From contig NZ_JBQJIN010000031.1 of assembly GCF_052078695.1 (NCBI RefSeq), forward strand, positions 1,494 to 65,493: a stretch of DNA of 64,000 bases, written 5' to 3'. The notes beneath the pieces were generated by a model that saw only the letters and a program-made list of their open reading frames with translations, ran no database searches and was not told the DNA's origin. The first letter of the stretch is position 1; each line of letters starts with the position of its first letter. Positions 33,254-62,966 of the stretch are shown here, in pieces. A program made the position numbers and the translations under genes. The stretch comes from Lysobacter sp. CA196. Its GTDB lineage: Bacteria > Pseudomonadota > Gammaproteobacteria > Xanthomonadales > Xanthomonadaceae.

Positions 33254-33287
33254 GCCGCCATTCTAGCCGGCGCACGCCGGCCGGCTG

Positions 33288-42287: not shown

Positions 42288-44567
42288 ATGCTCAAGCCAC
42301 TCACCGCCGCGATCAGCAGCATCCTGCTGCTTTCCGCCATCGCCGGCCCCGCCAGCGCGCAGGAGGCTCCGGCGGACGGCGACGAAAGCGACGCCGCGTC
42401 GGACCGCACCGCGGTCGATCTCGACAACGTCGTGGTGACCGGCACCCGCAGCCCGAAGGCGGTCGACCGCATTCCCGGCGCCATCACCCTGGTGTCGAAG
42501 GAAGAAGTGCAGCGCAACCTGGTGCTGACCGAGGACGCGACCGCGGTGCTGGCGCGCACGGTGCCGGGCTATGCCGAGTCCTCGCAGGCGATGAGCAACA
42601 CCGGCGAAAACCTGCGCGGCCGCGTCGCCCTGCGCTTGTTCGACGGCGTGCCGCAGGGCTCGCCGCTGCGCGAGGGCACCCGCAACGGCACCTTCACCGA
42701 CATGGGCATCGTCGGCCGCATCGAAGTCATCAACGGCCCTTCCGCCTCCGAAGGCATCGGCGCGGCCGGCGGCATCATCAACTACCTCTCGGCCGCCCCG
42801 ACCAAGGAAGGCAACGAGTTCACCGTCGTCTCGCGCTACACCACCCAGTTCGAGGACGACAGCGAGGGCTGGAAGCTCGGCTTCAACTTCGCCCGCAAGG
42901 CGGACAATTTCGACCTCCTCGCCAGCGCCTCCTTCCTCGACCGCGGCATCACCTACGACGGCAACGGCCGCCGCATCGGCATGAACACCAGCGGCTCGCT
43001 GGCGGATACCGAGTCGCGCAACCTGTTCCTCAAGGCCGGTTACGCCTTCGGCGAGGACGGCGTGCAGCGGATCGAGGGTTCGGTCAGCCACTTCAACGTC
43101 GAAGGCAAGGCCAACTACGTGCAGGTGCTGGGCTGCCGCCCCGACGAGGCGGCGCTGTGCGGCGCCACCCGCACCAACACCTCCGAGCGCGGCAACATCT
43201 TCGGCTCGAAGGCCGCGATCAACGACTTCAAGCAGTACCAACTCACCTACATCCATTCGGACCTGTTCGGCGGCACCCTCACCGTCAACGCCTACAAGGC
43301 CGACCAGCAGATGCGCTATCTGCCGGAGAACACCATCGACAAACAGGACCCGTTGATCGGACCGTCCGGTTCGATCTACGACCAGTCCGAAATCGCCACC
43401 GACAAGAAGGGCCTGCGCACCTCCTGGGCGCGGCCTTCGCTGTTCGCGGTCAGCGGCCTGGAGCTGCGGGTCGGTCTCGACCTGGTCGAGGACACCGCCG
43501 AGCAACGGCTGGCGCTGACCGACCGGCTGTGGGTGCCGCCGATGGAGTACAAGAGCCGCGCGCCGTGGGCGCAGCTGTCCTGGGACATCGGCCCGGTCAC
43601 CCTGAGCGGCGGCCTCCGCCGCGAGGACGGCGAGCTGCACGTCGACGGCTACACCACCACCTGGTACCGCGACCGCCGCCACGTCGACGGCGGCACTCTC
43701 GAGTACCAGGAAACCCTGAGCAACTTCGGCGCGGTCTGGCGCATCAGCGACGGCTGGTCGGTGTTCGGCTCCTACGGCGAGGGCTTCACCCTGGCCAACG
43801 TCGGCATTCCGCTGCGCAACATCCAGTGCTCCAACGATCCCGGCGACACCCAGCCCGACGGCTGCCCGAACGACCCGCGCATCGGCGTCGCCGACCTGCT
43901 CGACCTCAATGCGATCGTGGTCGAGAACACCGAGTTCGGTTTCAACTGGCGCGGCGAACGCGGCGCGCTGAGCGCTTCGCATTACGACTCCAAGTCCGAC
44001 TACGGCCAGTCGCTGGCGATCGATCCGGCCACCAACGATTTCGTGCTGCTGCGCGCGCCGGTGCGGATCAAGGGCTACGAGCTGTCCGGCGACTGGCGCT
44101 TCAACGAGGCCTGGCGCTTCAGCGCGGTGTATTCGCACACCCGCGGCAAGACCTCGTTCTGGGCCGCCGACGCCGCCGGCCGCTACGGCGCAGGCCGCAT
44201 GAACAAGCCGATGGGCGTGCTCGACATCAACCCCGACAAGTTCGCCTGGACCCTGACCTGGAAATACCACCCGCACGGCGACGTCAGCCTCGGCGCCACC
44301 ACCCTGTTCTCGCGCGATCTGTCCGCCAGCGACGTACGCGGCTTCGACGGCGCGCGCTTCAACTTCCGCGAAAACACCCGCGGCTACACCTTGTTCGACC
44401 TGGGCATGAACTTCGAGACCGAACGCTACGGCAAGTTCTCGCTCGGCATCGAGAACCTGTTCGACAAGCAATACATCCTGAGCTGGTCGCAGCCGCCCGG
44501 CGGCTTCCAGAACTACTGGGCCGGCCGCGGCCGCACCTTCTCGCTCACTCACACCTTCAAGTTCTGA
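42288..44567 (+). CDS. TonB-dependent outer-membrane receptor
   Basis: Signal peptide MLKPLTAAISSILLLSAIAGPASA, plug domain, beta-barrel, and C-terminal ...THTFKF aromatic terminus. Confidence 0.85.
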   Translation: MLKPLTAAISSILLLSAIAGPASAQEAPADGDESDAASDRTAVDLDNVVVTGTRSPKAVDRIPGAITLVSKEEVQRNLVLTEDATAVLARTVPGYAESSQAMSNTGENLRGRVALRLFDGVPQGSPLREGTRNGTFTDMGIVGRIEVINGPSASEGIGAAGGIINYLSAAPTKEGNEFTVVSRYTTQFEDDSEGWKLGFNFARKADNFDLLASASFLDRGITYDGNGRRIGMNTSGSLADTESRNLFLKAGYAFGEDGVQRIEGSVSHFNVEGKANYVQVLGCRPDEAALCGATRTNTSERGNIFGSKAAINDFKQYQLTYIHSDLFGGTLTVNAYKADQQMRYLPENTIDKQDPLIGPSGSIYDQSEIATDKKGLRTSWARPSLFAVSGLELRVGLDLVEDTAEQRLALTDRLWVPPMEYKSRAPWAQLSWDIGPVTLSGGLRREDGELHVDGYTTTWYRDRRHVDGGTLEYQETLSNFGAVWRISDGWSVFGSYGEGFTLANVGIPLRNIQCSNDPGDTQPDGCPNDPRIGVADLLDLNAIVVENTEFGFNWRGERGALSASHYDSKSDYGQSLAIDPATNDFVLLRAPVRIKGYELSGDWRFNEAWRFSAVYSHTRGKTSFWAADAAGRYGAGRMNKPMGVLDINPDKFAWTLTWKYHPHGDVSLGATTLFSRDLSASDVRGFDGARFNFRENTRGYTLFDLGMNFETERYGKFSLGIENLFDKQYILSWSQPPGGFQNYWAGRGRTFSLTHTFKF

Positions 44568-44698
44568 ACCGTTCGCGCTCATCGCCGGGTTACCCTCGAA
44601 CCGCCGCCGGCGCGACGCTCCCGGCGTCGCACCGGCGGCGGTGGTTTTTTGTCGCTGCGCTCGGCCTGTGCATCGGCCCGGCGTGCGCGAGCGAGCGC

Positions 44699-46096
44699 AT
44701 GGCCACCCCGAAGACCGAAGCTGCGGCCGCCCGCGCGGGCCTGCCTTCAGGAGATCTGTCGCAACTGCACCGCTTCATGCATTCGGTCACCGGCCGCGAC
44801 GGCTATCTCGGCGCGGTCAGCCTGGTCGCGCGCGACGGACGTATCGTCGATTGGCGGGCCTATGGCCATCGCGACCTGGCCCGCCGCGTGCCGATGCGCC
44901 GCGATTCGATCTTCCGCATCTATTCGATGAGCAAGACCGTCACCTCGGTCGCGGTGATGTTGCTGGTCGAACAGGGCCGGATCGGGCTCGACGACCCGGT
45001 GTCGCGCCATCTGCCCGAGCTGGCGCGGCCCCAGGTCGTCGTCGGCGGCAACGTCGATGCGCCGCGACTGCGCGATGCCGCAGGCGAGATCAGCATCCGT
45101 GAATTGCTCACCCACACCGGCGGGTTTGCGGCCGGGCTTGAGGGCGACGAACTGGCGACGGCGATCGTGCGGCGCCACGACCCGCATGCGGCCGCCGATC
45201 TGCAAGATTTCGTCGAACGCCTGAGCCGCGCACCGCTCGCCGCCGATCCGGGCACCCGCTTCGGTTACGACGGCGCCGCACTGGAGGTGCTGGCGCGGGT
45301 GGTCGAGGTCGTCTCCGGACAGCGCTTCGATGCCTTCCTGCACGAACGCATCTTCGTGCCCCTGGCGATGCGCGACAGCGGCTTCGACGTGCCACCGTCG
45401 CAGCGCGAGCGCGTGGTCGACCTCACCGCGATGGGCGAGGACGGTCGGCTGCGAATCGCCGACGGCCCGAGCGCGCGCGAACCCGGCGTGCGCTTGAACG
45501 CTTACGCCAGCGGCGCCGGCGGGCTGTACTCGACCGCCGGCGATTACGCCCGTTTCGCGCAGATGCTGCTCGATGGCGGGCGCATCGCCACCGTGCCCGC
45601 CGCCGGCTGCGCCGATGCCGCTGTGCCGGCGACGCCGAATGCTCGCGAGCGCGCTGCGTCCGATCCGCTCCGGACAAGCGACTGCACCACCGAACCCACG
45701 CCCGCACGCCTGCTGCGCGCCGACACCGTCGCGGCGGTCCTGCGCAACCAACTCGGCATGCTCGATCCGCCGGTCAACCAGTACAGCGACGGCGAAGGTT
45801 TCGGTTTCGGCGGCTATGTCGTGATCGATCCGGCCAAACGCGAACGCCCCGGCTCGCGCGGGCAGTTCGGCTGGTCGGGCGCGGCTTCGACTACGTACGC
45901 CATCGACCCGCAACAGCGATTGATCGCCATCGCCTTGTTGCAGCATCTGCCGCACGGCGAGGCACACCGGGATCTGCCGCGGATCGGCAGCGATTTCTAT
46001 CGCCAGGTGTATCTGGCCTTGAAAATCCCTGCCGCCTTGGAAATCCCTGCTGCCTTGGAGATCCCTGCATCCGCCGAACCGGAGACGACGCGATGA
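44699..46096 (+). CDS. beta-lactamase-family serine hydrolase (SxxK), start uncertain
   Basis: FRIYSMSKTV SxxK motif and a class-C/transpeptidase-like fold. The first in-frame ATG is at 44699. An in-frame signal-peptide-like stretch upstream lacks any ATG/GTG/TTG. Confidence 0.65.
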   Translation: MATPKTEAAAARAGLPSGDLSQLHRFMHSVTGRDGYLGAVSLVARDGRIVDWRAYGHRDLARRVPMRRDSIFRIYSMSKTVTSVAVMLLVEQGRIGLDDPVSRHLPELARPQVVVGGNVDAPRLRDAAGEISIRELLTHTGGFAAGLEGDELATAIVRRHDPHAAADLQDFVERLSRAPLAADPGTRFGYDGAALEVLARVVEVVSGQRFDAFLHERIFVPLAMRDSGFDVPPSQRERVVDLTAMGEDGRLRIADGPSAREPGVRLNAYASGAGGLYSTAGDYARFAQMLLDGGRIATVPAAGCADAAVPATPNARERAASDPLRTSDCTTEPTPARLLRADTVAAVLRNQLGMLDPPVNQYSDGEGFGFGGYVVIDPAKRERPGSRGQFGWSGAASTTYAIDPQQRLIAIALLQHLPHGEAHRDLPRIGSDFYRQVYLALKIPAALEIPAALEIPASAEPETTR

Positions 46097-47064
46097 GCAC
46101 CGCACCGTCCTCTTGTGTCCTCGTGGCCGGCTCGGCCAACCTCGATTTCGTGGTTCGAGCCAGCCATGTGCCGGCGCCCGGCGAAACCGTGCTCGGACGC
46201 GAACTGGCCCTGTTCCCGGGCGGCAAGGGCGCCAACCAGGCCGTCGCCTGTGCGCGCGCCGGCGGCGCGCCGACCCGCATGCTGTTGGCGCTCGGCGCGG
46301 ACGCGCACGCCGCGCCGATCGAGCGCTCGCTGCGCGAGGCCGGCGTCGACACCCGGATCGTGCGCGTCGCCGACCGCGCCACCGGCACCGCCTTCGTCTG
46401 CGTGTCCGACGATGGCGAGAATGCGATCACCGTCGCGCCCGGTGCCAACCAGGCCTTGCGCGACGAAGACCTGCCCGATCTGGACGGCGTCAGCCATCTG
46501 CTGCTGCAACTCGAATCGCCGCTCGACGCAGTCGAAGCCTGGGCGCGGCGTGCGCGCGCCGCCGGTGTGCGCGTGGTGCTGAACGCGGCGCCGGCGCGGC
46601 CGTTGCCGGCCGGCTTGCTCGCGGCAATCGACCTGCTGATCGTCAACCAAGGCGAACTGGCGGTGCTCAGCGGCGTGTCCGCGTCGGCGACCGGCGACGA
46701 TCTCGATGCGGCGCTGGCGCGCCTGCCGGCCTGCGACGTGGTGGTGACCCTCGGCGCACGCGGCTGCCGCGCCCGCATCGGCGGCGCGCACCTGCAGCAG
46801 CCTGCGTTCGCGATCGCCGCGGTCGATACCACCGCCGCCGGCGACACGTTCTGCGGCACACTGGTCGCGGCGCTCGCGCGTGGCCTGAGCTTCGCCGCCG
46901 CGCTGCGCCGCGCCTGCGCCGCCTCGGCCCTGGCCTGCACCCGCCCCGGCGCGCAGAGCAGCGTGCCGGCCTGCGACGAGGTCGAGCGCTGGCTCGCCGA
47001 AGCCGCGGACCCGATGCCGGCACCCGTCACGTCTCCCGCTCCAGGCTTAGCGACGTCCCCATGA
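46093..47064 (+). CDS. PfkB-family carbohydrate kinase (ribokinase-like)
   Basis: NLDFVVR...PGGKGANQAVA...AVDTTAAGDTFCG ribokinase signatures. ATGA overlap with the upstream gene. Confidence 0.8.
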   Translation: MSTAPSSCVLVAGSANLDFVVRASHVPAPGETVLGRELALFPGGKGANQAVACARAGGAPTRMLLALGADAHAAPIERSLREAGVDTRIVRVADRATGTAFVCVSDDGENAITVAPGANQALRDEDLPDLDGVSHLLLQLESPLDAVEAWARRARAAGVRVVLNAAPARPLPAGLLAAIDLLIVNQGELAVLSGVSASATGDDLDAALARLPACDVVVTLGARGCRARIGGAHLQQPAFAIAAVDTTAAGDTFCGTLVAALARGLSFAAALRRACAASALACTRPGAQSSVPACDEVERWLAEAADPMPAPVTSPAPGLATSP

Positions 47065-49250
47065 CCACAGCGCCCCACTCCCCCGAGCACTCCGACGCCG
47101 CCAGCGAGGACGAACGTCCGCGCGTGCGCACCGAGTACAAGTTCTCGCACGTCACCACTCAACGTTATCTGCCGCTGCCGGGCAAGGCGCCGGGCTGGCC
47201 GTTCGCCGAGATCGGCCATTGGAAGGTCGACGTCGACGCCACCCTCGACGACTGGGTCGCCGAGCTGCGCGATTGGCGTCGCGAACACCTGATCCGCATC
47301 GGCTACGACGACGCTCATTACCGCCGCCCCGAACTGCAATGGGCGCAGCGCAATTTCGTCCATGCCCAGATGATGGCCGAGGACCGCTACTTCTACGATC
47401 CGGTCGCCGGCCGCTACACGGTCGACCGTTATCTCGACGACCTCGAACGCCGCTATGGCGGCATCGACAGCGTGCTGATCTGGCACGTGTACCCGAACAT
47501 CGGCGTCGACGACCGCAACCAGTTCGACCTCGCCGCCGACCTGCCCGGCGGGCTCGATGGCCTGCGCGGCGCGATCGCCGATTTCCGTCGCCGCGGCGTG
47601 CGCGTGTTCCTGCCGACCATGCCCTGGGACCAGGGCACCCGCGACAGCGGCCGCAAGGACTGGGAAGCGGTGGCGCAGTTGGTGCAAGCGGTCGGCGCCG
47701 ACGGCGTCAACGGCGACACCTACAACGGCGTGCCGCGCGCGTTCTTCGACGCCTGCGACACGCTCGGCCACCCGGTGGTGCTGCAGCCGGAGTCGACCAT
47801 CAGCGCCGAGGAAGCGCTGATCTGGAACGTGCAGAGCTGGGGCAAGAAGGCGCCCAACGAAACGATTCCGCCGGTAGCCAAGTTCAAGTGGCTGGAACCG
47901 CGCCACATGATCAACTACGAAAACCGTTGGGGCCGCGAGCGCAACCACGACCTGCAATACATCTTCTTCAACGGCATCGGCTACAACGCCTGGGAAAACG
48001 TCTGGGGCCTGTGGAACCAACTCGGCGAACGCGATGCCGAGACCCTGCGCCGCATCGCCACGATCGCAAGGCAGTTTCCCGCCCACCTGGTCAGCGCCGA
48101 CTGGCGCCCGTACGCGCGCACCCTGCAGGCCGGCGTGTTCGCCAGCCGCTTCCCGCAGGCCGGCAGCACGCTGTGGACCCTGGTCAATCGCAACGAGTAT
48201 GAGGTCGCCGGCGAACAGATCGCGGTCGATCATCTCGACGGCGCGCGCTACTTCGACGTCTGGAACGGCATCGCCCTGCAACCGCGGCTCGACGGCGGCC
48301 GCGCGGTGTTCGACTTCGTACTCGAAGGCCGCGGCTTCGGCGCCGTGCTCGCGCTGGCGCCGGGCGCCGAGATCGACGGACTCGACGTCTTCCTCGCCCG
48401 CATGAACGAATTGTCGGCGACGCCGCTGCATCGCTACTCGAACCAGTGGCGCGCGCTGCCGCAACGGCTGGTACCGATCGAAGCCGGCGCGGCGGTCGCA
48501 TCGGCGCCGCCGGGCATGGTCGAGATCCCGGCCGGCGAGTTCGATTTCGTCGTCGGCGGCATCGAGATCGAAGGCCAGACCTGGGAAGGCGTCGACGTCC
48601 AATACCCCTGGGAAGACGGCGCGCGCCGCAACCATCGCAAGCGCATGCGCCTGCCGCGCTTCTTCATCGATCGTACCCCGGTGACCAACGCCGAGTACCA
48701 GCGTTTCGTCATCGATAGCGGCTACGCCCCGCGCGACCGCCACAATTATCTGCGCGACTGGGTCGACGGCGCGCCGCGCCCGGGCTGGGAACGCAAGCCG
48801 GTAACCTGGGTCGCGCTCGAAGACGCGCGCGCCTATGCGCAATGGGCCGGCAAACGCCTGCCGCGCGAGTGGGAATGGCAGTACGCCGCGCAAGGCCACG
48901 ACGGCCGCCGTTATCCCTGGGGCGAGGACTGGCGCGACGATGCGGTGCCCGTGCCCAACCGCAGCCGCCGCCTGCGCGCGCCCGACGATGTCGACGCGCA
49001 TCCGACCGGCGCCAGTCCGTTCGGCGTGCTCGACCTGGTCGGCAACGTCTGGCAATGGAGCGACGAATACCTCGACGAGCACACCCGCGCGGCGATCCTG
49101 CGCGGCGGCAGCGCCTACCGACCGCAGACCTCGCACTGGTACTTCCCGCAGGCCTACCGGCTCGACCAGCACGGCAAATACCTGCTGATGGCGCCGAGCA
49201 AGGACCGTTCGGGTTGCATCGGCTTCCGCTGCGTGGCCGATGCCGCATGA
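47061..49250 (+). CDS. fusion protein: N-terminal glycoside-hydrolase-like TIM-barrel domain + C-terminal FGE/SUMF1 (formylglycine-generating-enzyme fold) domain
   Basis: C-terminal RLPREWEWQYAA...GNVWQWSDEY...ILRGGSAY are FGE-sulfatase fold hallmarks. The N-terminal ~480 aa are unassigned and glycosidase-like. ATGA overlaps at both ends. Confidence 0.65.
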   Translation: MTTAPHSPEHSDAASEDERPRVRTEYKFSHVTTQRYLPLPGKAPGWPFAEIGHWKVDVDATLDDWVAELRDWRREHLIRIGYDDAHYRRPELQWAQRNFVHAQMMAEDRYFYDPVAGRYTVDRYLDDLERRYGGIDSVLIWHVYPNIGVDDRNQFDLAADLPGGLDGLRGAIADFRRRGVRVFLPTMPWDQGTRDSGRKDWEAVAQLVQAVGADGVNGDTYNGVPRAFFDACDTLGHPVVLQPESTISAEEALIWNVQSWGKKAPNETIPPVAKFKWLEPRHMINYENRWGRERNHDLQYIFFNGIGYNAWENVWGLWNQLGERDAETLRRIATIARQFPAHLVSADWRPYARTLQAGVFASRFPQAGSTLWTLVNRNEYEVAGEQIAVDHLDGARYFDVWNGIALQPRLDGGRAVFDFVLEGRGFGAVLALAPGAEIDGLDVFLARMNELSATPLHRYSNQWRALPQRLVPIEAGAAVASAPPGMVEIPAGEFDFVVGGIEIEGQTWEGVDVQYPWEDGARRNHRKRMRLPRFFIDRTPVTNAEYQRFVIDSGYAPRDRHNYLRDWVDGAPRPGWERKPVTWVALEDARAYAQWAGKRLPREWEWQYAAQGHDGRRYPWGEDWRDDAVPVPNRSRRLRAPDDVDAHPTGASPFGVLDLVGNVWQWSDEYLDEHTRAAILRGGSAYRPQTSHWYFPQAYRLDQHGKYLLMAPSKDRSGCIGFRCVADAA

Positions 49251-51142
49251 GTACGGGCACGCGTCATGACGGGCCTGCGCACGACAAGGTCCGCCTCGGT
49301 GGACCGTTTGAGGAAGCGACAGTCGGCCTCGGCGGCCTGCTCGGCGAGGCGCTCGACGCCAATCGCCACGGCCGGCTCTCGCATTTCATCGTCGACGAGA
49401 CCAGCCCGGCGATCGCGATCTTCGCCCCGCAGCAACGCCGGCACAACCGCGAAGGCGACTGGTACGGCGAACATGCCGGCAAATGGCTGATCGCCGCGGC
49501 CAAGGCCGCCGCACGCAGCGGCGATGCCGAACTGCGCACGCGCCTGCTGCGGGTTGCCGACTTCCTGGTCTCGACCCAGGAGGACGACGGCTACCTCGGC
49601 ACCTACGCGCCCGAGCGCCGCTTCATGCGCAAGCAGCCGCCCAAGCCGCTCAGCTGGGACGGCGCGCCGAGCATGCGCACCTGGGACATCTGGACCCACG
49701 CCTATCTGATCCTCGGTCTGCTCGAAGTGCATCGTCACTTCCCTGCGCCGCGCTATCTCGATGCGGCCAGGCGCATCGGCGACCTGTGCCTGCACAGTCT
49801 CACCGACGGCGGCATCGACATCACCGAACTCGGCAATCACCACGGCCTGTCGGCGACGGTGTTGATGGACCCGGCGGTCGAGCTGTATTTCGCCACCGGC
49901 GAGCCGGCGTATCTGCAACTCGCGCAGACTGTGCTGGCCCAGGCCGAGCGCCACCCCGAGCTGCGCCTGCTCTCGCACGCGCTGGACGGCACCGATGCGG
50001 CGCAGATCGCGACCGGCAAGGCCTATCAGCTGGCCTGGAACCTGGTCGGCCTGGCCAAGCTGCACCGCGCCACCGGCAACAGCGACCACCGTCGCGCGGT
50101 CGAGAACGTCTGGCGCAGCATCCATGCCCACCATCTCAGCCTCGGCGGCGGCCCCTGCGGCGGCGTCGGTCACCGTTCACGCGAAGTCTTCAACCCGGCC
50201 GGGGTGTTCAGCCCGCAGGCCTACGTCGAAACGTGCTCGACCCTGGCCTGGATGCAGTTGAACCGCGAGCTGCTCGCGATCACCGGCGAAGCGCGCTACG
50301 CCGAGGAGATCGAACGCTCGGCTTATAACGACCTGCTCGGCGCGCAAGCGCCCGACGGCGAGAACTGGTGCTACTACGTGTTCGCCAACGGCCGTCGCGT
50401 GCACACCACTTACTGGCGCTGCTGCAAGTCCAGCGGCGCGATGGCGCTCGAAGAACTTCCCGGCGTCGCCTATGCGCGGGTCGGCGACGACGCGATCGCG
50501 GTCAACCTGTACGGACCGGGTTCGGCGCGGATCGAACTGCCGCCGTGCGGACCGGTGACGATCGAACAGAACACCACCTACCCCTTCGACGCCGCGATCC
50601 GCCTGCGCATCGATCCCGAGCGCGCTGCCCGCTTTCGACTCAAGCTGCGCATTCCTTCATGGGCCACGCAAGCGCGGGTCGCGGTCAACGGCGCCGCCCT
50701 CGACACCGAACCTGCGGTCGGCGGTTACCTCGTCATCGACCGGGTGTGGAGCGCCGGCGACGAGGTCCATGCGCAGTTCCCGATGACGCCGCAGGCCCAC
50801 ACCGCGGTCCATCGCAACGTGCAGGAGTCGCGCGCGCCCGACGGCAGCGCAGTGGCGCGGGAAGTGCTGCATTACGAGTACCTGGCCGTGACCTGCGGGC
50901 CGCTGGTGTATGCCAGCGGCTTGATCGACGGCTTCAAGACCGAAGAAACCCTGCGCCTGCCGTCGACGCCGCCCAGCGCCTGGCTGCGATGGTCGGGGCC
51001 GGACGCGATCGAGCCGGTGCCGCGCATCGAACTGGACCCGGGCTATCGCGCGCCGCTGGTGTTCCGCCCTTATTACTGCGCCGGCGGGCGCAACGACGGC
51101 GCCTGGCGCCTGACCTGGATGTCGCTCGCGCCCGCAGCGTGA
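49247..51142 (+). CDS. glycoside hydrolase family 127 (beta-L-arabinofuranosidase HypBA1-like, DUF1680)
   Basis: DUF1680/GH127 pattern including the ENWCYYV...WRCC Cys cluster. Confidence 0.7.
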   Translation: MSTGTRHDGPAHDKVRLGGPFEEATVGLGGLLGEALDANRHGRLSHFIVDETSPAIAIFAPQQRRHNREGDWYGEHAGKWLIAAAKAAARSGDAELRTRLLRVADFLVSTQEDDGYLGTYAPERRFMRKQPPKPLSWDGAPSMRTWDIWTHAYLILGLLEVHRHFPAPRYLDAARRIGDLCLHSLTDGGIDITELGNHHGLSATVLMDPAVELYFATGEPAYLQLAQTVLAQAERHPELRLLSHALDGTDAAQIATGKAYQLAWNLVGLAKLHRATGNSDHRRAVENVWRSIHAHHLSLGGGPCGGVGHRSREVFNPAGVFSPQAYVETCSTLAWMQLNRELLAITGEARYAEEIERSAYNDLLGAQAPDGENWCYYVFANGRRVHTTYWRCCKSSGAMALEELPGVAYARVGDDAIAVNLYGPGSARIELPPCGPVTIEQNTTYPFDAAIRLRIDPERAARFRLKLRIPSWATQARVAVNGAALDTEPAVGGYLVIDRVWSAGDEVHAQFPMTPQAHTAVHRNVQESRAPDGSAVAREVLHYEYLAVTCGPLVYASGLIDGFKTEETLRLPSTPPSAWLRWSGPDAIEPVPRIELDPGYRAPLVFRPYYCAGGRNDGAWRLTWMSLAPAA

Positions 51143-51286
51143 CTGCACGCACAGTCCACGCCCGCCAAGCAAGAATTTGTGCTGCCAGAACATATGCGGC
51201 GAGGCTGTTTCCGCGACCGCGACTGGCGCACAGTGACTCGCCATCACGACTCGGCATCAGGCTCCAGGCTTTCGGACGCGCACCGC

Positions 51287-52498
51287 ATGGACTCTATTTC
51301 CCCCGCCCCGACGACCGACCGCACGGCTCCGGCCGGGCCGCTCGCCGGCATCCGCGTACTCGATCTCAGCGCCTATATCGCCGGCCCTTACGGCTGCACG
51401 CTGCTCGCCGACCAGGGCGCCGACGTGATCAAGATCGAGCCGCCCGATGGCGACAACCTGCGCCAGTACCCTTCGACCCTGGCCAGCGAAAGCCGTGCCT
51501 TCCTTGGGGTCAACCGCAGCAAGCGCGGCATCGTGCTCGACCTCAAACGTCCCGCCGACCACGCCGTGCTGTTGCGTCTGGTGCGCGAGGCCGACGTGCT
51601 GGTGCACAACTTCCGCCCGAGCGTGCCGCCGCGCCTGGGCATCGATTTCGAGCGCCTGCAGCTGATCAATCCGCGCCTGATCTATTGCGCAGTCAGCGGC
51701 TACGGCGAGACCGGTCCGATGAAGGACAAGGCCGGCTACGACCAGGTGCTGCAGACCATGACCGGCATGTGCGCGCTGCAGGGGCGCCGCGGCGGGCCGC
51801 CGGAAATCATCTACGGCTCGGTGGTCGACTACTACGCCGCCGCCCTGCTCGCCGCCGGCGTAGCCTCGGCCCTGTACGAACGCGAGCGCAGCGGCCTGGG
51901 CCAGTTCGTCGGCGTCTCGTTGTTGCGCAGCGCCCTGACCATGCAATCGGCGCGGATGATCTGGGCCGACGGCGAAGGCCTCGACATCGGCCGCGACATG
52001 CGCTCGGGCGGCGTCACCGGCATCCACCCGACCCGCGACGGCCACATCTACATTTCGGCCAATACCTCGCGCTTCTGGAAATCCCTGTGCGAGAAGACCG
52101 GGCTGGTCGAACTCGCCGACGACCCGCGCTACGACAGCGTGCGCAAGCGCGCGCAGGCCGTCGCCGAAATCGTGCCGCGCCTGCACCAGGCGCTGGCGGC
52201 CCGCGATGCGATGGCATGGGAAGCGCTGTTCGGCGACGAGGTGCCCTGCGCCGCGGCGCGGCGCATCGAGGACATGTTCGAGCATCCGCAGGTGCTCGCC
52301 GAGGGCATCGTCGGCCCGATCCAACACCCGCAGGTCGGCCACTACCGCGGCGTCGCCCAATCGATCAAGTTCGGCCGCACCCCGGGCCCGGCGCCGTTCG
52401 CCGCGCCGATGCTCGACCAGGACACTCAGGCGATCAAGGACGAACTCGCCGACCGCGGCACGGTGACTTGGGAACGGCGCGGCGCGGTCGAACGCTGA
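51287..52498 (+). CDS. CoA-transferase family III (CaiB/BaiF) protein
   Basis: IRVLDLSAYIAGPYGCTLLADQGADVIKIEPP N-terminal signature. Confidence 0.85.
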   Translation: MDSISPAPTTDRTAPAGPLAGIRVLDLSAYIAGPYGCTLLADQGADVIKIEPPDGDNLRQYPSTLASESRAFLGVNRSKRGIVLDLKRPADHAVLLRLVREADVLVHNFRPSVPPRLGIDFERLQLINPRLIYCAVSGYGETGPMKDKAGYDQVLQTMTGMCALQGRRGGPPEIIYGSVVDYYAAALLAAGVASALYERERSGLGQFVGVSLLRSALTMQSARMIWADGEGLDIGRDMRSGGVTGIHPTRDGHIYISANTSRFWKSLCEKTGLVELADDPRYDSVRKRAQAVAEIVPRLHQALAARDAMAWEALFGDEVPCAAARRIEDMFEHPQVLAEGIVGPIQHPQVGHYRGVAQSIKFGRTPGPAPFAAPMLDQDTQAIKDELADRGTVTWERRGAVER

Positions 52499-52528
52499 GC
52501 GCCGTGCGCCTTGGCCCAGGCGCCCGCG

Positions 52529-53245
52529 CTAGTACGGCGCAGCCTGGGCATCCAGCGCGAACTTCCGCCACAGCTCCTCGAACTGGCCGGCGAAGCAGCG
52601 CACCAGGTTGGCGTCGTCGGTCACCACCAGGTTCTCTTCGTTGCTGGTGGTCGCGCTACGGGTCCAGTTGAAGCTGCCGTTGGCCAGCACCCGGCCGTCG
52701 AACAGCGAGAATTTGTGGTGCATGTGGAAGGGGCTGTCGTCGATCCGCACCGGCACCCCGGCCTCGCGCAGGCGCAGCACGTCGCTGCCTTCGTCGAACT
52801 TCTTGTCGTTGTCGCTGATCAGGCGCACGGCGATGCCGCGCCGGTGGCAGGCGAGGATCTCTTCGCTGAGGCGGTCGTCGGAGATCGTGTACACGCAGAT
52901 GTCGACGCTGCGCTTGGCGCCGCGGCACAGCTCGCGCAGTTTGCGCAGGCAGGCATCGCCGGGCGCGAAGTAGGCGCTCGACACCACCGCGGGCGCGGCG
53001 ACCACGTCGAGGGTCTTGATCACCTGCTCCAGCCAGCGCAGCCCGTCGAGGGCATGCACCGGCTCGCCGAGCATCAGCTCGCGGGTCATGTCGAAGGCGC
53101 GGTTGCGCAGATAGCGCACCCGCTCGCTGCCGAGACCGGCGCCGAGTTCGCGCAACTCGAATTTCTCGTCGTTGTCGAGCGCGCGGTCGGCGATGCTGTC
53201 GCGCAAGGTCTGGTCGAGCCGGCCGAAATCCATGTCCCTGTCCAT
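52529..53245 (-). CDS. single-HKD phospholipase D-family nuclease-like protein (Nuc-like) with ~90-aa N-terminal extension
   Basis: HMHHKFSLFDGRVLANGSFNWT matches HxK(x4)D(x6)GSxN. The start is 3 nt after the stop of the 1790-aa ATPase gene. Confidence 0.75.
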   Translation of the reverse strand: MDRDMDFGRLDQTLRDSIADRALDNDEKFELRELGAGLGSERVRYLRNRAFDMTRELMLGEPVHALDGLRWLEQVIKTLDVVAAPAVVSSAYFAPGDACLRKLRELCRGAKRSVDICVYTISDDRLSEEILACHRRGIAVRLISDNDKKFDEGSDVLRLREAGVPVRIDDSPFHMHHKFSLFDGRVLANGSFNWTRSATTSNEENLVVTDDANLVRCFAGQFEELWRKFALDAQAAPY

Positions 53246-53248
53246 TCC

Positions 53249-56200
53249 TTAGCGTTGGATGCGACCGTTGAGGCGGTCGGCGAATTCATTGAGCGCACGC
53301 TGCAGCTCACGCTGCTGCTCGGTCATTTCCGCGCGCGTCGGCGCGTCGTCGACGTCGCGCTGGCCGAGCCGCTTGAAGATTTCGACCAGAGCCTCGTTGA
53401 GGCGGGTCTGGCGTTCGCTGCTGTCCTGCAGGTGGTTGACCAACGGGTCGAACGCGGACTGCAGCGACGGCACCAGCGAGGTGTGCAGCGACGAGCCGAG
53501 GCCGTTGAGCAGCTTGCCCAGGTCCGGCGCCGGCGCGGTCGGAGTCGCCGGCGGTTGCGCCTGCGCCACCTTTTCCAGGGCAGCCAGGATTTCCTGCCAC
53601 GGCGCCGACGGCGCCGGCTCGGCACGGCCGGCGGCCTGGCTGGCCGACTGGTCGAGCGCGCGCACGCTCTCGACCAGGTCGTTGAGCTGCGCCACGACCC
53701 GAGTGCCGACATCTGCATCGCCCGCGCCCATCGCCTTGTTGCGCTGGAAATCGCGCTTGATCTGAGCCCAACGCGCGGTCTGCGCCTCGTCGAGGGTGCC
53801 GCGCATCTCGCCGAGCTTGAGCAGGTTCTCTTCGGCGCCGCTGGTCAGCAGTTGCGCCTCACCGAGGTAGTGATCGCCGATCAGCTGCTGCAGCTCGGCC
53901 TCGTTCATCACCGGCGAGATTTTCTCGGCGAGCTTGTTCATGTTGCGATAGCTGCCCTGCAGCTTGAACGGCGGCTCGGTGCGGTAGCTCTCGGCCTGGG
54001 CGGCGCTGGCGATGTACTGCTGGTTGACCCGGTAGACCACGTCGCGCACTTTCACCAGCCGTTCCAGGGTCGCGACGATCTCGTTGATCTCCGCGCCGCT
54101 GTAGGCATGACTGAGTTCATCGGCGGAGAATGCCTTGCCCTGGGCCTTGTCGACGAAACGATACAGGTCGGCCATTTCGCGCGTCGCCAGCGGCGCCAGC
54201 ACCGGGTTCGAGGTCAGGCTGTTCTCGATGTAGCTGAGCACGAACGAGGCTTCCATGCCGCCGAGCACGTCGCCGAGGTTGTAGATGTCGGCGCGGTTGG
54301 CGAGCATGTCCGGGATCTTGAAGACCTCGCCGGACTCGGTGTAGGGGTTGCCGGCCATGACCACGCAGAACTTCTTGCCGCGCATGTCGTAAGTGCGGGT
54401 GCGGCCCTTCCACACACCTTCGATGCGACGGGTGCCGTCGCACAGGGAAATGAATTTCTGCAGGAACTCGGGATGGGTGTGCTGGATGTCGTCGACATAC
54501 AGCATCACGTTGTTGCCCATCTCCAGAGCCAGGTTGAGCTTGTCGAGTTCCTGGCGCGAGGTTGCGTCGGGCGCCTGCTCCGGGTCGAGCGAGCGCACTT
54601 CGTGGCCCAAGGCCGGGCCGTTGATCTTCATGAAGATCAGGCCGAGCCGGTGCGCCACGTACTCCATCAAGGTGGTTTTGCCGTAGCCCGGCGGCGAGAT
54701 CATCATCAGCAGGCCCATCAGGTCGCTGCGCTTGCTTTCGCCGACCGTACCCATCTGCTTGGCGAGGTTGTCGCCGATCACCGACAGGTACACGTCGTTG
54801 ATGAGCTTGTTGCGCACGAACGAGGTCAGCGGACGCGGCTTGAACTCGTCCAGGCGCAGGGCATGGCGCTCGCGGCCGACGATCTCCTGGCGCAAGGCCT
54901 GATAGCGCTGGAAGCCGGGGACGAAGGTCTCGCGGTGGTGGCGCAGGCGCGCCGACCAGTCGTCGATCGCCAAAGTGATGCGGCCTTCGACGAGGCGCGG
55001 ATGCTCGCCGAGCAAGCCCTGCACCGGCGCGCTCAGGTCGACCTCGGTGACCTTCTTCGGGAAGCGCTCGTCGAGCAGCAACAAGGTCGCCGCTTCGGCG
55101 GCATAGGCCGTAATCGGGGCGAGTTCGGGCGAACGCGTCAGCGCCTCGACCCAGTTCATCGCCAAGGCCCAACGCGCGGCGACGCGGTCGCCGAGGCCGT
55201 CGAGGGCCTGGATGAAGCCGTCCCACATCCGCGCCGCAGTGAGTTTCTCGCGCAGCGCCTGCAACAGTTGTTGCGCGTACTTGCTGAACACGAACTGCGG
55301 GTGCTCGGCGGACAACTCCAGCACCAGGTATTCGGCTGCGCGCGGGGTCAGCGCCGGATCGATCGCCAGGGTGTGCTGCTGGGCGAAGGCGGTCATCGCC
55401 GCGGCGATCTCGGTCCGCAACGATTCCAGGCCCGCGGCGCTGGCGAACAACTGCTGGATGTCGCGCGCAGTGCGCGCGCGTTCCGGCCATTGGCGGGCGT
55501 CGGCGTGCTCGGCGACCTGCGACCAGAACAACGCCGCCCAGGCGCGCGCGGCCGGCTCGAAGCCGAGGCTGCCGGCGCTGTCGCGCAGCGGCAGCAGCGC
55601 CTGCAGGATCAGGCTGGCGTCGTGGTCGTGGATGCCTTTCTCATAGCCTTCGCGATAGCGCGGCGCGGCGAAGTCGCGCACGCTGCGCGCCAGCAGCTCC
55701 GGCTGCGCCAGTTGCTGGCGCAGCAGATCCAGGCTGAGGCCGTCGCGATTCGCGCTGGCCGCCTCGATCACCAGGCCGGCCAGGTACTCGCCGCGATACA
55801 GCTGCGGCGATTCCGAATCCATCGACACGCCCCAGTAATCGCGCGCGGCATCGAGTTCGGGGTTGCGCAGCGGCTCGAAGAAGTCGGTGCCGGTCAGGTG
55901 CAGGTTGAGCACGTCGCCGCGCGGCAACAGGGTCAGGTCGAGTTCCTGGGTGTTGACGCTGAAGCGGTGGCGCGGCCCCAATTTGATGACGTTGCCGCCG
56001 TCTTCGAACAACTCGCTGCGGTCGCGCAGCGCGCGCACCGCCTGGTCGCGCGCGCCCTTGAGCCGCGCCTCGATGTCGTCGGCCTTGACGCTGTCCTTGA
56101 GCGTGCGCAGGCGCTCGGCCAGTTCGCGCAGCTTGAGGATCAGCGGGTCGCTGGCGAAGAAGGCGTTGAGTTCGTCGCTGCCGGCGAAGCGCGCGGTGCG

Positions 56201-58621
56201 CCGGCCCAGCCCGTCGAGGATGCGGGTGGCCGCATCCATGACCGCCTGCGCCTTGCGCTGGCGATCGTCGAGCAGGGTCTGCTTGTGCGCCTCGAAGGTT
56301 TCGAGCAGTTCCTCGCGCTTGGACAGGATGTCCCCGAGGAAGGCCTCGTGCTCGCCGAACTGACTTTCCAGTTCTTCCAGCTGCACCATCAGCCGCGACA
56401 ACTGCTCGTCGGCACGCTCGGGGTCCTGGGCCAGCGACAGCGCGCTGGCGATGCTCTGCCCAAACAGGGTGAATTGGGCGCCGAACTGGGCCACCGACTC
56501 GCTCGAACCCAGGCCCTTGCGGCGCTGTTCGGCGCGCGCCTTGGCTTGGTTGAGCTTGGCGTAGATCTCCGAGATCGACTCGACGATGCGGGTGCGCTGG
56601 GTGGCGTCGTCGACTTTCAGCGTCGCCATCAGCGCCGAGAGCATGTCGAGGTCGCCCGACATCGCCTGCATCTGTCCGATCGGTTCGAGCAATTGCGCCA
56701 CGCTGACGGCCTGCTGGGCCTGCGCTTCCAGGGCGTGCAAACGCTCGGCCAACGGCGCCAGGGCCTTGTCGCCGGCGAGGAAGGCGCCGGTCGCCGCGGC
56801 GGTGCGCTCGTGCGCGGCGACCAGTTCCTGCTCCATCGCGTCGATGCCGGCGACGTCGATGTAGCGGTAATCGCGGATCGTCAGCAAATGCCCGCGCTGC
56901 GCGGTCAAACCGTTGAGGGCGTCGACGAACTCCTGCACCCGTTCCCAGTTCTCCGGCTGCAGGCCGTCGAGCAAGGCCTTCTGGCGCGTACGCGCCTCGG
57001 TCATCGCGCGCTCGGACTGGCTGCGGATGCCTTCGACTTTCTCGTACTCGTCGAGCACCGACTCGGCGGTTGCGGCGATCTCGCGCAGCAGCGGCGCGGT
57101 GCCGGCGCAGGCGGGGTCGGACAGCCAATGATGGGCGTCGAACAAACGGCGGGTGTTCTGCGCCAGCAGGCCGTAACGCTGCGCCGAAACCTCGGTGGCC
57201 TCGATCTCGCGCGACAGGCTCATCAGCTCCGACACGCCGCGAACCAGCTCGGCATTGCCGATCTTGCCCATGAAGCTGTTGCCGGCCGGCTGCCGTGCCG
57301 CGAACTCGTCGCTGTAGTACGGCGTCTGCCAGACCTGCATCGGATGGACGCGGGTCGGCTCGTCGCTTTCGGTGGCGAAGATCACCATGCGCCCGTCTTC
57401 CAGGCGCGCATAGCCGTGACCGAAGATCGGCGTCTGCAGGCGCCGCTCGATCATGTTGTAGGTGAACATGGCGGTGCGGCCCTGTTCGGGCTCGTAGAAC
57501 AGGTACAGCACGTCCTCGCCGTTGGGCGAGCGGATCGTGCGCTTGAAGCGCATGCCGTCCATCGACTGGTCGAAGCGCTTGTGCTCGCCGTTCTGCAGGT
57601 AATAGCCGCCCGGGAAGATGATGCCGTGGTCTTCGGGCAACTGGATGCAGGCCAGGCCGATCTCGTCCAGGCGCACGACCTTGCGGGTCAGGGTGTTGAA
57701 GACGAGGTAGCGCCACTGCTCTTCGCGATACGGCAGGATCTTCAGCAGGATCAGGCTGCCGACGCGGGCGTAGTCGACTTGGGCGTCGTCGAGCGACTGG
57801 GTCTTGTCGACGACGGGCTCGCGGTAGATGCCCTGCCCGTCCTCGGTGTTGTTCTCGATCTTGACCGTGAGGTCGCCGTTGACCGTCTCGACGAACACGC
57901 TGTCGAGAATGTTCAGATGCGGGTGGCGGCCGTTGACTACCCTCTCTCGGGTGGCGCGGGTCCATTCGAAATCGAACGGCGCCGGCAGGGCGATGTCGCG
58001 CTCGCCGCGGTTGTCGATGTAGGTCACTTCGCCGCCCGGCGCGATCGCCCAGCGGAACACGCGCAGGTCGGTGATGCGCTCGCCGATCTGGAACGCCGCG
58101 AGCAACTTGCCGTCGCGCACGATCAACTGGATCAGGCGGGTGTTCTTGTAATACGCGTACAGCTCGCGGAAATCCTGGGCGAAACTGTCGATGCCGAGGA
58201 AGCTGCCCTTGAGCTCGACCGGGGTGACGTCGTAGCCCTCCGGCCCCTGCACCAGCTTGTACAGCGCGAACACGTCCTCGACCCGGGTCTCCTTCTTGAG
58301 CCCGAGGAAGACGTTGTAGCCGAACACCAGGCAGTCGCCGACCTGGACGATGTCGCGGGCGACGCAGTTGTTCTCGGTGCGCAGGCGGAAGCGCCCGACC
58401 ACCTCCATCTGGCTGCTGCCGAATTCGTCGAGGCGCTGCTGGTTCAGACCCTGGGCGATGTCGCGCAGGCGCTGGCCCTGTTCGGCCAGACGCTTGCTCA
58501 ATACCTCATAAGCGCCGCCCTGGGCGACGGCCTGGTCGACGGCTTGATTCGCCGCAGCGCTGTTGGCGCCGCCGTCGTTCGCGTTCTCGCCCGTGGCCGT
58601 GCCCGGCTTGGTGTCCGCCAT
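53249..58621 (-). CDS. 1790-aa multidomain protein with beta-rich N-terminal domain, long helical/coiled-coil middle and C-terminal AAA+ (AAA_5/MoxR/McrB-like) P-loop ATPase module, function unknown
   Basis: Walker A ISPPGYGKTTL, Walker B VMLYVDDIQH, sensor-1-like FCVVMAGNPY and Arg-finger-like DMLANRADIY. AGGACGG RBS. The antisense long ORF is rejected as a shadow. Confidence 0.7.
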   Translation of the reverse strand: MADTKPGTATGENANDGGANSAAANQAVDQAVAQGGAYEVLSKRLAEQGQRLRDIAQGLNQQRLDEFGSSQMEVVGRFRLRTENNCVARDIVQVGDCLVFGYNVFLGLKKETRVEDVFALYKLVQGPEGYDVTPVELKGSFLGIDSFAQDFRELYAYYKNTRLIQLIVRDGKLLAAFQIGERITDLRVFRWAIAPGGEVTYIDNRGERDIALPAPFDFEWTRATRERVVNGRHPHLNILDSVFVETVNGDLTVKIENNTEDGQGIYREPVVDKTQSLDDAQVDYARVGSLILLKILPYREEQWRYLVFNTLTRKVVRLDEIGLACIQLPEDHGIIFPGGYYLQNGEHKRFDQSMDGMRFKRTIRSPNGEDVLYLFYEPEQGRTAMFTYNMIERRLQTPIFGHGYARLEDGRMVIFATESDEPTRVHPMQVWQTPYYSDEFAARQPAGNSFMGKIGNAELVRGVSELMSLSREIEATEVSAQRYGLLAQNTRRLFDAHHWLSDPACAGTAPLLREIAATAESVLDEYEKVEGIRSQSERAMTEARTRQKALLDGLQPENWERVQEFVDALNGLTAQRGHLLTIRDYRYIDVAGIDAMEQELVAAHERTAAATGAFLAGDKALAPLAERLHALEAQAQQAVSVAQLLEPIGQMQAMSGDLDMLSALMATLKVDDATQRTRIVESISEIYAKLNQAKARAEQRRKGLGSSESVAQFGAQFTLFGQSIASALSLAQDPERADEQLSRLMVQLEELESQFGEHEAFLGDILSKREELLETFEAHKQTLLDDRQRKAQAVMDAATRILDGLGRRTARFAGSDELNAFFASDPLILKLRELAERLRTLKDSVKADDIEARLKGARDQAVRALRDRSELFEDGGNVIKLGPRHRFSVNTQELDLTLLPRGDVLNLHLTGTDFFEPLRNPELDAARDYWGVSMDSESPQLYRGEYLAGLVIEAASANRDGLSLDLLRQQLAQPELLARSVRDFAAPRYREGYEKGIHDHDASLILQALLPLRDSAGSLGFEPAARAWAALFWSQVAEHADARQWPERARTARDIQQLFASAAGLESLRTEIAAAMTAFAQQHTLAIDPALTPRAAEYLVLELSAEHPQFVFSKYAQQLLQALREKLTAARMWDGFIQALDGLGDRVAARWALAMNWVEALTRSPELAPITAYAAEAATLLLLDERFPKKVTEVDLSAPVQGLLGEHPRLVEGRITLAIDDWSARLRHHRETFVPGFQRYQALRQEIVGRERHALRLDEFKPRPLTSFVRNKLINDVYLSVIGDNLAKQMGTVGESKRSDLMGLLMMISPPGYGKTTLMEYVAHRLGLIFMKINGPALGHEVRSLDPEQAPDATSRQELDKLNLALEMGNNVMLYVDDIQHTHPEFLQKFISLCDGTRRIEGVWKGRTRTYDMRGKKFCVVMAGNPYTESGEVFKIPDMLANRADIYNLGDVLGGMEASFVLSYIENSLTSNPVLAPLATREMADLYRFVDKAQGKAFSADELSHAYSGAEINEIVATLERLVKVRDVVYRVNQQYIASAAQAESYRTEPPFKLQGSYRNMNKLAEKISPVMNEAELQQLIGDHYLGEAQLLTSGAEENLLKLGEMRGTLDEAQTARWAQIKRDFQRNKAMGAGDADVGTRVVAQLNDLVESVRALDQSASQAAGRAEPAPSAPWQEILAALEKVAQAQPPATPTAPAPDLGKLLNGLGSSLHTSLVPSLQSAFDPLVNHLQDSSERQTRLNEALVEIFKRLGQRDVDDAPTRAEMTEQQRELQRALNEFADRLNGRIQR

Positions 58622-58742
58622 GTGTCCGTCCTAACGATCCTGCCGGCCGCGCGCTAAGCCGCGCCATCGGCGTGCTGCCATGCGCCGCCGATGGCGGCGG
58701 CGCGTTCCTTGGTCCGTGCTGCTGGGTTCCGGCCGCGAGCGG

Positions 58743-61620: not shown

Positions 61621-62328
61621 TCAGCCCGGCAGTTTCTGTCGCAACCTCAGCAATACCGCTTCGGCGCCGGCGTCGTCGGCGATGATGCCGGCCTCGCGTA
61701 GCTTGCGTTCCAGCGCGTCGCCGCCGTCCTGGCGCGCCAATTCGGTCGCTGCCTCCATGCGCGCACCGCGCTCGGCCTGCTTCTGCTTGATCCGCGCCAA
61801 CGAGTCGACCGCCGTCTGCAAGCGGTTCTGCGGCCCGGCGTAGCGATGCGCGACCGCAGCCTGCGCGCGCTGCATGCTCTCGGTGGCCTTGACCGTGTCC
61901 AGTTGTTGCTTGAGCCGGCGGATGTTGCCTTCGGCCATGGCGATGGCCTTGCGCAGCTCGGTCGCGCTGAGCGCGAGCTGCTGCACGTGGCGCTCGTCGT
62001 CGCCGCGGCCGGATTCGAGCAGCACGATCTTGTCGGCGACTTCGCGCGCCAGCGACTCGTCGCCGGATTCCAGCGCCTTGATCGCATAGGTTTCGTATTC
62101 GGCGACCTTGTCGCTGGAATCGCTCAGGCGCCGCTGCGCCAGCGAATGGCGCGCGATCAATTCGGCCAGCGATTCGCGCGAACGACGCAGTTCCAGGTCG
62201 CAATCGCGGATTTCCTGGTCGAGGATGCGCAGCGCCTGACTGTCGACCCAGGCCTCGCCGAGCTCGCGCGCACCGCCGCGTATCGAGGTCAGCAGCTTGC
62301 TCCAGATGTTCGGGTCGGACATCGACAT
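61621..62328 (-). CDS. PspA/IM30 (Vipp1) family protein (YjfJ-like paralog)
   Basis: Start MSMSDPNIWSKLL with GGAGGTGG RBS. The ATG overlaps the upstream stop as ATGA. Coiled-coil PspA pattern. Confidence 0.8.
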   Translation of the reverse strand: MSMSDPNIWSKLLTSIRGGARELGEAWVDSQALRILDQEIRDCDLELRRSRESLAELIARHSLAQRRLSDSSDKVAEYETYAIKALESGDESLAREVADKIVLLESGRGDDERHVQQLALSATELRKAIAMAEGNIRRLKQQLDTVKATESMQRAQAAVAHRYAGPQNRLQTAVDSLARIKQKQAERGARMEAATELARQDGGDALERKLREAGIIADDAGAEAVLLRLRQKLPG

Positions 62329-62960: not shown

Positions 62961-62966
62961 GATAAG

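Follow-up and report, generated by a model that had tools for sequence, protein, structure and literature searches.

A single-HKD phospholipase D-like gene related to MitoPLD/Zucchini at the end of a PspA–flotillin–ATPase operon in Lysobacter

We analysed a 64,000-nucleotide (nt) stretch of the Lysobacter sp. CA196 genome (contig NZ_JBQJIN010000031.1, positions 1,494 to 65,493; hereafter the window; G+C content 68%), in which a gene for a phospholipase D-like (PLD) protein forms the end of an operon on the minus strand. The gene order is yjfI (CesT-like)–pspA–yqiJ/NfeD-like–flotillin–AAA+ ATPase–PLD, followed by a convergent CoA-transferase gene, and both the PLD open reading frame (ORF) and the ATPase ORF upstream of it show the codon-position G+C profile of real genes. 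An operon of the type CesT/Tir–PspA–YqiJ/YuaF–band-7/flotillin–novel AAA+ has been described computationally by Ravi et al. (mSystems 2024, PMC11237479), who state in one sentence, without analysis of the PLD, that "some Proteobacteria" add an HKD hydrolase to it. The operon, including its occasional PLD, is therefore already in the literature (PMC11237479); the present analysis adds a description of the N-terminal domain of the PLD protein and of the specific closeness of this protein to MitoPLD/Zucchini, and reports insertions of rhomboid and TelA genes, loci with PLD alone and synteny with ole and ubi genes.

Pfam assigned one PLDc_2 domain to the protein (PF13091, amino acids (aa) 106-226; 97.9 bits against a cut-off of 27, expectation value (E) = 5.3e-28), and the motif HxK(x4)D(x6)GSxN occurs once per chain, with every motif residue invariant in 35 aligned sequences; the single HKD motif proposed in an earlier sequence-only reading of the window was thus confirmed. 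A sequence search of PDB chains with aa 95-229 retrieved human MitoPLD/PLD6/Zucchini (9lkx_K, E = 3.8e-31) and its mouse counterpart (4ggj, 6.1e-28), both ungapped, followed by fly Zucchini (2e-19), Nuc (1byr, 2.8e-11) and NucT (1.8e-5), and BLASTP against human PLD6 gave 42% identity over 115 residues. For an AlphaFold2 model derived from the alignment of 35 sequences (predicted local distance difference test score (pLDDT) of 84), Foldseek ranked 4ggj, 6ehi, 4gel and 1byr highest (probability 1.0, target-normalised template modelling scores of 0.6-0.8), and the top NCBIfam models were NucT equivalogs. Against these stands a sole, marginal match to a synthase, ClsB (NCBIfam, E = 0.005 over 30 residues, 15.9 bits against a cut-off of 281), with PssA appearing as a distant Foldseek match only. 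The protein does not cluster with cardiolipin or phosphatidylserine synthases, and its assignment to the Nuc/Zucchini type rather than to the two-HKD synthases stands.

The reverse search led to the same family: with a fragment of human PLD6 as query against 72,556 PLSDB records, the two best matches were the Vibrio and Photobacterium members (103 bits), and thousands of plasmid-borne Nuc-like genes scored 81 bits or less (more than 5000 PLSDB records matched). The closeness to MitoPLD is hence reciprocal within the sets searched, which is not the same as a full phylogeny. Some members of the family carry the label "mitochondrial cardiolipin hydrolase" in JGI annotation. In a comparison with the zinc element of Zucchini by sequence alone, C99, C117 and H134 were invariant in close homologues, and H134 was lost in distant members. 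Taken together, the profile, sequence and fold searches indicate that the gene encodes a genuine single-HKD phosphodiesterase-type protein that is nearest to animal MitoPLD/Zucchini.

The additional N-terminal domain of ~90 aa that the sequence-only reading had noted proved to be real and conserved, with a length of ~85-90 aa. Modelled alone, it folded into four helices (pLDDT 88.5), and the N-terminus is by this model an acidic soluble four-helix bundle with no transmembrane (TM) or mitochondrial anchor; its calculated isoelectric point (pI) is ~4.8, against ~6 for the catalytic domain. Several residues in the motifs RYLRNRAF and LRWLEQV are conserved across the family. With this domain alone as query, a full phmmer scan of 1.84 billion representative proteins yielded 50 matches only, of which 49 were no longer than 279 aa, the exception being a 6288-aa entry without an aligned stretch, and the ten matches that were retrieved were ~230-aa PLDs of the same family or fragments of them. 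The domain is a new, narrowly distributed, PLD-family-specific module outside current domain libraries.

Whichever PLD start codon is taken, the ATPase and PLD genes lie very close together on one strand. The 3-nt gap reported from the letters of the window is literally present as TAA-GGA-ATG, but the functional gap is probably larger. All 34 aligned homologues start with MDF..., equivalent to Met5 of the longest ORF; the distance from the ATPase stop to this start is 13 nt in the closest genome, where its frame differs from that in the window, and 7-29 nt, in varying frames, in related genomes. Since homologues begin at the Met5 equivalent and the frame of the gap varies among relatives, the functional start is most likely the ATG at 53233, 15 nt from the ATPase stop (Table 1). 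A Shine-Dalgarno-like AAGGA overlaps the ATPase stop codon and lies 12 nt before this ATG. On the other side, a 30-nt convergent spacer separates PLD from the downstream gene; an intrinsic terminator was rejected there, as the spacer hairpin was no better than shuffled sequence (z = -0.8) and the scan gave no terminator-like site at this position. Opposite the ATPase and PLD genes runs an antisense ORF of 2048 aa (52511..58657, plus strand; G+C of 0.91 at the first and 0.68 at the third codon position), which we rejected as a gene and regard as a typical high-GC shadow ORF.

Table 1 Features of the PLD operon and of the ole/ubi genes in the window (GC2 and GC3, G+C at the second and third codon positions).
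Feature	Coordinates	Strand	Evidence or remark
PLD gene, longest ORF, 238 aa	52529..53245	-	GC3 0.94, GC2 0.41
Probable true PLD start, ATG (Met5), giving 234 aa	53233	-	Alignment of homologues
N-terminal four-helix domain, aa 5-88	52982..53233	-	Acidic, pI ~4.8, no Pfam model
Catalytic PLD domain, aa 89-229, Zucchini/MitoPLD/Nuc type	52559..52981	-	Pfam, PDB sequence search, Foldseek
Single HKD motif, H176-H-K178-FSLF-D183-GRVLAN-G190-S-F-N193	52667..52720	-	Translation
Junction TAAGGA: ATPase stop TAA (53251..53249) and GGA	53246..53251	-	Sequence
Giant ATPase, 1790 aa	53249..58621	-	DUF3686 E = 4e-206, DUF7902, AAA/AAA_5
Flotillin/SPFH-type scaffold, 687 aa	58743..60806	-	N-terminal hydrophobic segment, long charged coiled coil
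YqiJ/YuaF/NfeD-like multi-TM protein, 236 aa	60861..61571	-	Homology, operon position
PspA/IM30 (YjfJ-type), 235 aa	61621..62328	-	PF04012 E = 2.7e-46; start overlaps yjfI stop by 1 nt
DUF2170/YjfI (CesT/Tir-like chaperone), first operon gene	62328..62960	-	PF09938 E = 2.5e-50
Promoter-like site ahead of yjfI	62988..62959	-	Promoter scan, weak evidence
oleB	37261..36350	-	Olefin (membrane hydrocarbon) biosynthesis
oleC	36258..34630	-	Olefin biosynthesis
oleD	34307..33330	-	Olefin biosynthesis
ubiJ	33292..32648	-	Ubiquinone accessory
ubiB	32597..30930	-	Ubiquinone accessory

We then asked how constant the linkage between the two genes is, using a scan of one genome per species that returned relatives in 315 species and a detailed analysis of the best 80 loci (Lysobacter, Luteimonas, Marilutibacter, Thermomonas, many Pseudomonas groups and others). 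PLD identity across these 80 species was 62-97%, which points to strong purifying selection. The ATPase gene lay upstream on the same strand in 74 of the 80 loci, and flotillin, NfeD-like, PspA and YjfI genes were present wherever the flank of the locus reached far enough. Direct adjacency of ATPase and PLD accounted for 28 loci (26 with 7-70 nt and two with ~200 nt between the genes). A rhomboid protease gene (PF01694; 183-191 aa) stood between them in 40 loci of Pseudomonas type, overlapping the ATPase stop and abutting or nearing the PLD start (e.g. 9449..10000 in L017, and likewise 8360..8935 in L088, a more distant locus). In six others, from some Lysobacter and Luteimonas (L014, 8121..9991; L019, L024, L028, L029 and L070), the intervening genes were an uncharacterised 258-aa gene with no Pfam match and telA (TelA, toxic anion resistance protein, PF05816). 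The last six, from Thermomonas, Tahibacter and Aquimonas, encode a PLD with the N-terminal domain and have no operon within 10 kb. The co-occurrence of an SPFH protein, a rhomboid protease and a MitoPLD-like enzyme is reminiscent of the pairing of SLP2 with PARL in mitochondria.

In Vibrio, Photobacterium and two metagenomic lineages, the linkage is kept by relatives with an identity of 43-45%. Chromosome 2 of Vibrio campbellii has the order NfeD-like–flotillin–ATPase–PLD–TelA with a 0-nt gap between ATPase and PLD, and here TelA follows the PLD (L081, 12751..13809); the 48%-GC metagenomic lineage L088 has PspA–NfeD–flotillin–ATPase–rhomboid–PLD; and on the 69%-GC metagenomic contig L092 the PLD begins 1 nt after the C-terminal part of the ATPase. 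TelA is thus recurrent at the 3' end of the operon, and this end is modular (PLD, rhomboid, TelA). Among five distant PLD members, three have no adjacent ATPase.

These results uphold the link to the giant ATPase and speak against the stoichiometric partnership that had been read from the close spacing: other genes intervene in 46 of the 80 loci, and PLD genes without an adjacent ATPase are found both among the 80 and among the distant members. In addition, the ATPase homologues of pQBR103, Deinococcus, Streptomyces and Hymenobacter lie in a PspA/flotillin context in which the ATPase is the last gene, and neither PLD nor an alternative effector was found in these operons. Because ATPase operons elsewhere end without it, PLD is a lineage-restricted, dispensable accessory, encoded as the last gene, of a widespread core machine and not an obligatory stoichiometric partner. 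Between Lysobacter and Pseudomonas, identity was ~82% for flotillin, ~71% for the ATPase, ~65% for PLD, ~62% for PspA and 43% for the NfeD-like protein; the high value for flotillin indicates either unusually strong constraint or that the operon passed from one order to the other comparatively recently.

The partner genes were identified by several routes. In the ATPase, DUF3686 (aa 52-498) is followed by a coiled coil with DUF7902 (aa 619-702) and a C-terminal AAA+ module (aa ~1296-1432) with Walker A GYGKTT and Walker B YVDD; DUF3686 has been described as a propeller (Ravi et al., PMC11237479), our literature search under its name found no papers, and RefSeq labels the ATPase homologues "DNA repair ATPase". 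The window flotillin had no match in Pfam (including Band_7/flotillin), NCBIfam or PDB sequences; it is 44-49% identical to RefSeq proteins named "flotillin family" or "SPFH domain-containing", with matching operon position. The YqiJ/NfeD-like protein shows weak homology to a Hymenobacter DUF1449 protein in the equivalent position and 36% identity to a pQBR103 gene. As there is no direct Pfam match, both of these identities rest on RefSeq-annotated homologues. At the head of the operon, the longest YjfI ORF has an N-terminal extension of ~69 aa (62750..62960, minus strand) before the DUF2170 match, with a marginal MazE-like match (E = 0.023); the true yjfI start is probably further downstream, because the promoter-like site extends onto the annotated GTG start, as far as 62959. 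The assignment of YjfI to the CesT/Tir-like chaperones follows Ravi et al. (PMC11237479).

The close packing of ATPase and PLD had also suggested an effector module of the kind found in defence systems, a proposal that the surroundings of the gene do not support: its operon partners are envelope-stress and membrane-scaffold genes, the ATPase operons elsewhere carry no effector, the PADLOC and NCBIfam matches are sub-threshold and the chromosomal position is conserved. The PLD protein shares a PLD-superfamily domain and weak profile matches with DrmC of DISARM (23-29 bits, cut-off 133), MkoC of Mokosh (23.6 bits) and DpdK of Dpd (23.2 bits, cut-off 100), but scores far under the family cut-offs of 100-133 bits, and the partner genes of these systems are absent near it, and membership of a known defence system was rejected on these grounds. 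PADLOC gave no matches for flotillin, the NfeD-like protein or PspA, and a single one for the ATPase (LmuB, coiled-coil, 3e-4). No relevant paper emerged from a literature search for defence systems that build on flotillin or SPFH proteins. No full-length PLD copies were found on phages, and those in the plasmid collection were confined to Vibrio and Photobacterium records of 1.7-2.1 Mb, replicons that are presumably second chromosomes. The conservation of the 4 kb downstream of PLD in ~45 species-level Pseudomonas loci speaks for a fixed place in the chromosome and not for a variable island, and the neighbours of the operon in the window are metabolic genes. The locus is unlike a typical defence island. 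PspA and TelA systems do have historical ties to phage and colicin stress.

A second recurrent neighbourhood involves the ole and ubi genes. The block oleB-oleC-oleD-ubiJ-ubiB stands directly after the flotillin–ATPase–PLD operon in at least 11 further loci of Lysobacteraceae; in the window, where oleA was not found, a ~15-kb block (~37500..52500) of metabolic and transport genes parts PLD from oleB. This block looks like an insertion into an ancestral synteny, because relatives including L003 and L010-L013 lack it between PLD and oleB. Encoded in it are an SSF transporter fusion, a LysR regulator, a TonB-dependent receptor, a protein with an FGE-sulfatase domain, a GH127 beta-L-arabinofuranosidase-like protein and a family III CoA-transferase. 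In Thermomonas (L035, L037, L049, L051; around locus position 10001), PLD is located between oleB and oleC, with oleD, ubiJ and ubiB next, and in L051 PLD and oleB are translationally coupled through a shared ATGA (4-nt overlap); our literature search found no paper that mentions a PLD gene within ole clusters. This arrangement shows that PLD can be kept and expressed without the ATPase. We initially considered it as independent evidence for a lipid role, and downgraded it on finding that the operon with PLD precedes oleBCD-ubiJB in many Lysobacteraceae. Proximity of PLD to ubiJ/ubiB recurs in three different arrangements, the other two being ubiJ-ubiB-PLD on one strand in Tahibacter (L034, 7671..10693) and a PLD divergent from ubiE-ubiJ-ubiB on an unrelated 40%-GC metagenomic contig (L091, 592..3561).

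As to function, we tentatively favour, at somewhat below an even chance, a cytoplasmic, dimeric phosphodiesterase that is recruited to the flotillin/PspA machinery and remodels anionic phospholipids. By analogy with the single-HKD family, it would have to be a homodimer with one composite active site. Under membrane stress, PspA (ESCRT-III-like) and the flotillin scaffold would form an assembly where the inner membrane is damaged or rich in anionic lipids, and would be remodelled by the AAA+ ATPase; the N-terminal domain, acting in protein interaction, would bring PLD to this assembly, where PLD would hydrolyse or exchange phospholipid head groups at the inner leaflet, converting cardiolipin or phosphatidylglycerol to phosphatidic acid as proposed for MitoPLD, and the altered local charge and curvature might aid sealing or fusion. 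We infer both the recruitment through the N-terminal domain and the lipid substrate, the substrate above all. A lipid is favoured because the operon partners (DUF2170, PspA, NfeD-like, flotillin) are membrane or envelope-stress proteins and the variable inserts (rhomboid, TelA) are also membrane-associated; because PLD persists without its supposed regulator, which would be unlikely for a toxic nuclease; because the locus is core-like, with a conserved position and no full-length copies on phages or mobile plasmids; because the protein is acidic; and because cardiolipin hydrolysis at the membrane has been proposed for its nearest solved relative, MitoPLD, reportedly by Choi and colleagues in 2006. 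The retention of the ATPase–PLD linkage down to 43-45% identity also counts in favour of this reading.

Several points weigh on the other side. To our knowledge, the small single-HKD enzymes with solid in-vitro biochemistry are all nucleases (Nuc, NucT, BfiI, Zucchini), and the cardiolipin-hydrolase activity of MitoPLD is said to have been contested in 2012 in the work of Ipsaro and of Nishimasu. The operon context is guilt by association, and the literature search found no experimental work on the ATPase or on any member of the PLD family. Within Lysobacteraceae, the closeness to ole and ubi genes stems at least in part from inherited synteny and is not independent evidence.

The same biochemistry of the small single-HKD enzymes leads to the main rival account, which we consider somewhat unlikely: PLD may be a Zucchini/Nuc-type nuclease (an endonuclease of single-stranded RNA or of DNA) under the control of the membrane-stress machinery. 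It could then act as a suicide or restriction effector when phages or toxins perturb the envelope, in a manner like Zorya- or Ter-linked systems, or as a membrane-localised RNA processor. The grouping with MitoPLD/Zucchini, Nuc and NucT in sequence and fold, the NucT models at the top of the NCBIfam list, the identity of the best, if weak, PADLOC matches (DrmC, MkoC, DpdK), the tight packing behind the ATPase and the link of PspA and TelA systems with phage or colicin stress (partly from PMC11237479) would all be consistent with a nuclease. However, no operon variant that we examined contains a nucleic-acid-related partner, and the partner genes gave no significant PADLOC match; the core operon is widespread without an effector, and PLD in turn persists without the ATPase; and the core-like location, the lack of complete copies on phages or mobile plasmids and the acidic character of a protein without a dedicated nucleic-acid-binding domain likewise speak against a nuclease. 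A further explanation dispenses with any functional partnership: a housekeeping PLD gene would have resided ancestrally in the ubiE/ubiJ/ubiB and ole region, the operon would have arrived alongside it, and PLD would be expressed by read-through. The three arrangements near ubiJ-ubiB (PLD-oleBCD-ubiJB in many Lysobacteraceae, ubiJ-ubiB-PLD in Tahibacter, and the divergent ubiE-ubiJ-ubiB of L091), the existence of PLD-only loci and of ATPase operons without PLD, and the variable genes inserted between the two all fit such a history. Against it, the order ATPase then PLD and the tight spacing are kept in Pseudomonas, Vibrionaceae, L088 and L092 in the absence of adjacent ubi or ole genes, and because order and spacing hold there at protein identities of only 43-45%, selection on the linkage is indicated; we regard this purely historical explanation as quite improbable.

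Whether Zucchini/MitoPLD-type single-HKD enzymes act on RNA, on cardiolipin or on both is a disputed question, and the family described here provides a 42%-identical bacterial relative that is genetically tied to membrane shaping and repair proteins and to a giant AAA+ ATPase. If the Lysobacter protein acts on lipids, it would add an enzymatic lipid-editing step to bacterial membrane repair and strengthen the case that MitoPLD acts on lipids; should it be a nuclease, the operon would constitute a new kind of effector system triggered by envelope damage. A bolder proposal, which we consider unlikely, is that among prokaryotes this family stands nearest to eukaryotic MitoPLD/Zucchini and may even have given rise to it, with anionic-lipid remodelling beside SPFH scaffolds as its ancestral job. 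In that case the operon would correspond, in bacteria, to the SLP2/prohibitin–PARL–cardiolipin axis of mitochondria, the nuclease role in the PIWI-interacting RNA pathway would have been derived later, and a tractable bacterial system would become available for the long-standing "lipase or nuclease" dispute on MitoPLD.

In comparison with known systems, the gene content and order of the operon in the window match those of the operon of Ravi et al. (PMC11237479) exactly, with the YjfI–PspA dyad, YqiJ and flotillin, and the DUF3686 AAA+ protein all present. ClsA/B/C and PssA share with the Lysobacter PLD the PLD-superfamily chemistry on phospholipids that is proposed for it, but carry two HKD motifs in one chain of ~400-490 aa, whereas the Lysobacter protein has one motif. 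Nuc (IncN plasmid pKM101/Salmonella, 1BYR) and NucT (H. pylori, 6EHI) resemble it in their single-HKD domain of ~150 aa with the same fold, and the Nuc-like genes of plasmids align with the catalytic domain only (aa 89-227, ~35% identity). Nuc and NucT carry signal peptides and function as secreted or periplasmic nucleases, and Nuc-like genes are carried on conjugative plasmids, whereas the Lysobacter PLD has no signal peptide, possesses the extra N-terminal domain and is encoded on the chromosome in a membrane-stress operon. The closest resemblance is to MitoPLD/PLD6/Zucchini (4GGJ, 4GEL, 9LKX), which likewise have a single HKD motif, an ungapped core of ~135 aa with 42% identity, the same fold by Foldseek and the common signatures MHHKF, GS(F/L)NWT and NxEN. 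The insertion specific to fly Zucchini is absent from the Lysobacter protein, which differs from all of these in being bacterial and cytoplasmic, in its location in a PspA/flotillin/AAA+ operon, and in having an acidic four-helix domain in place of the N-terminal TM or mitochondrial anchor.

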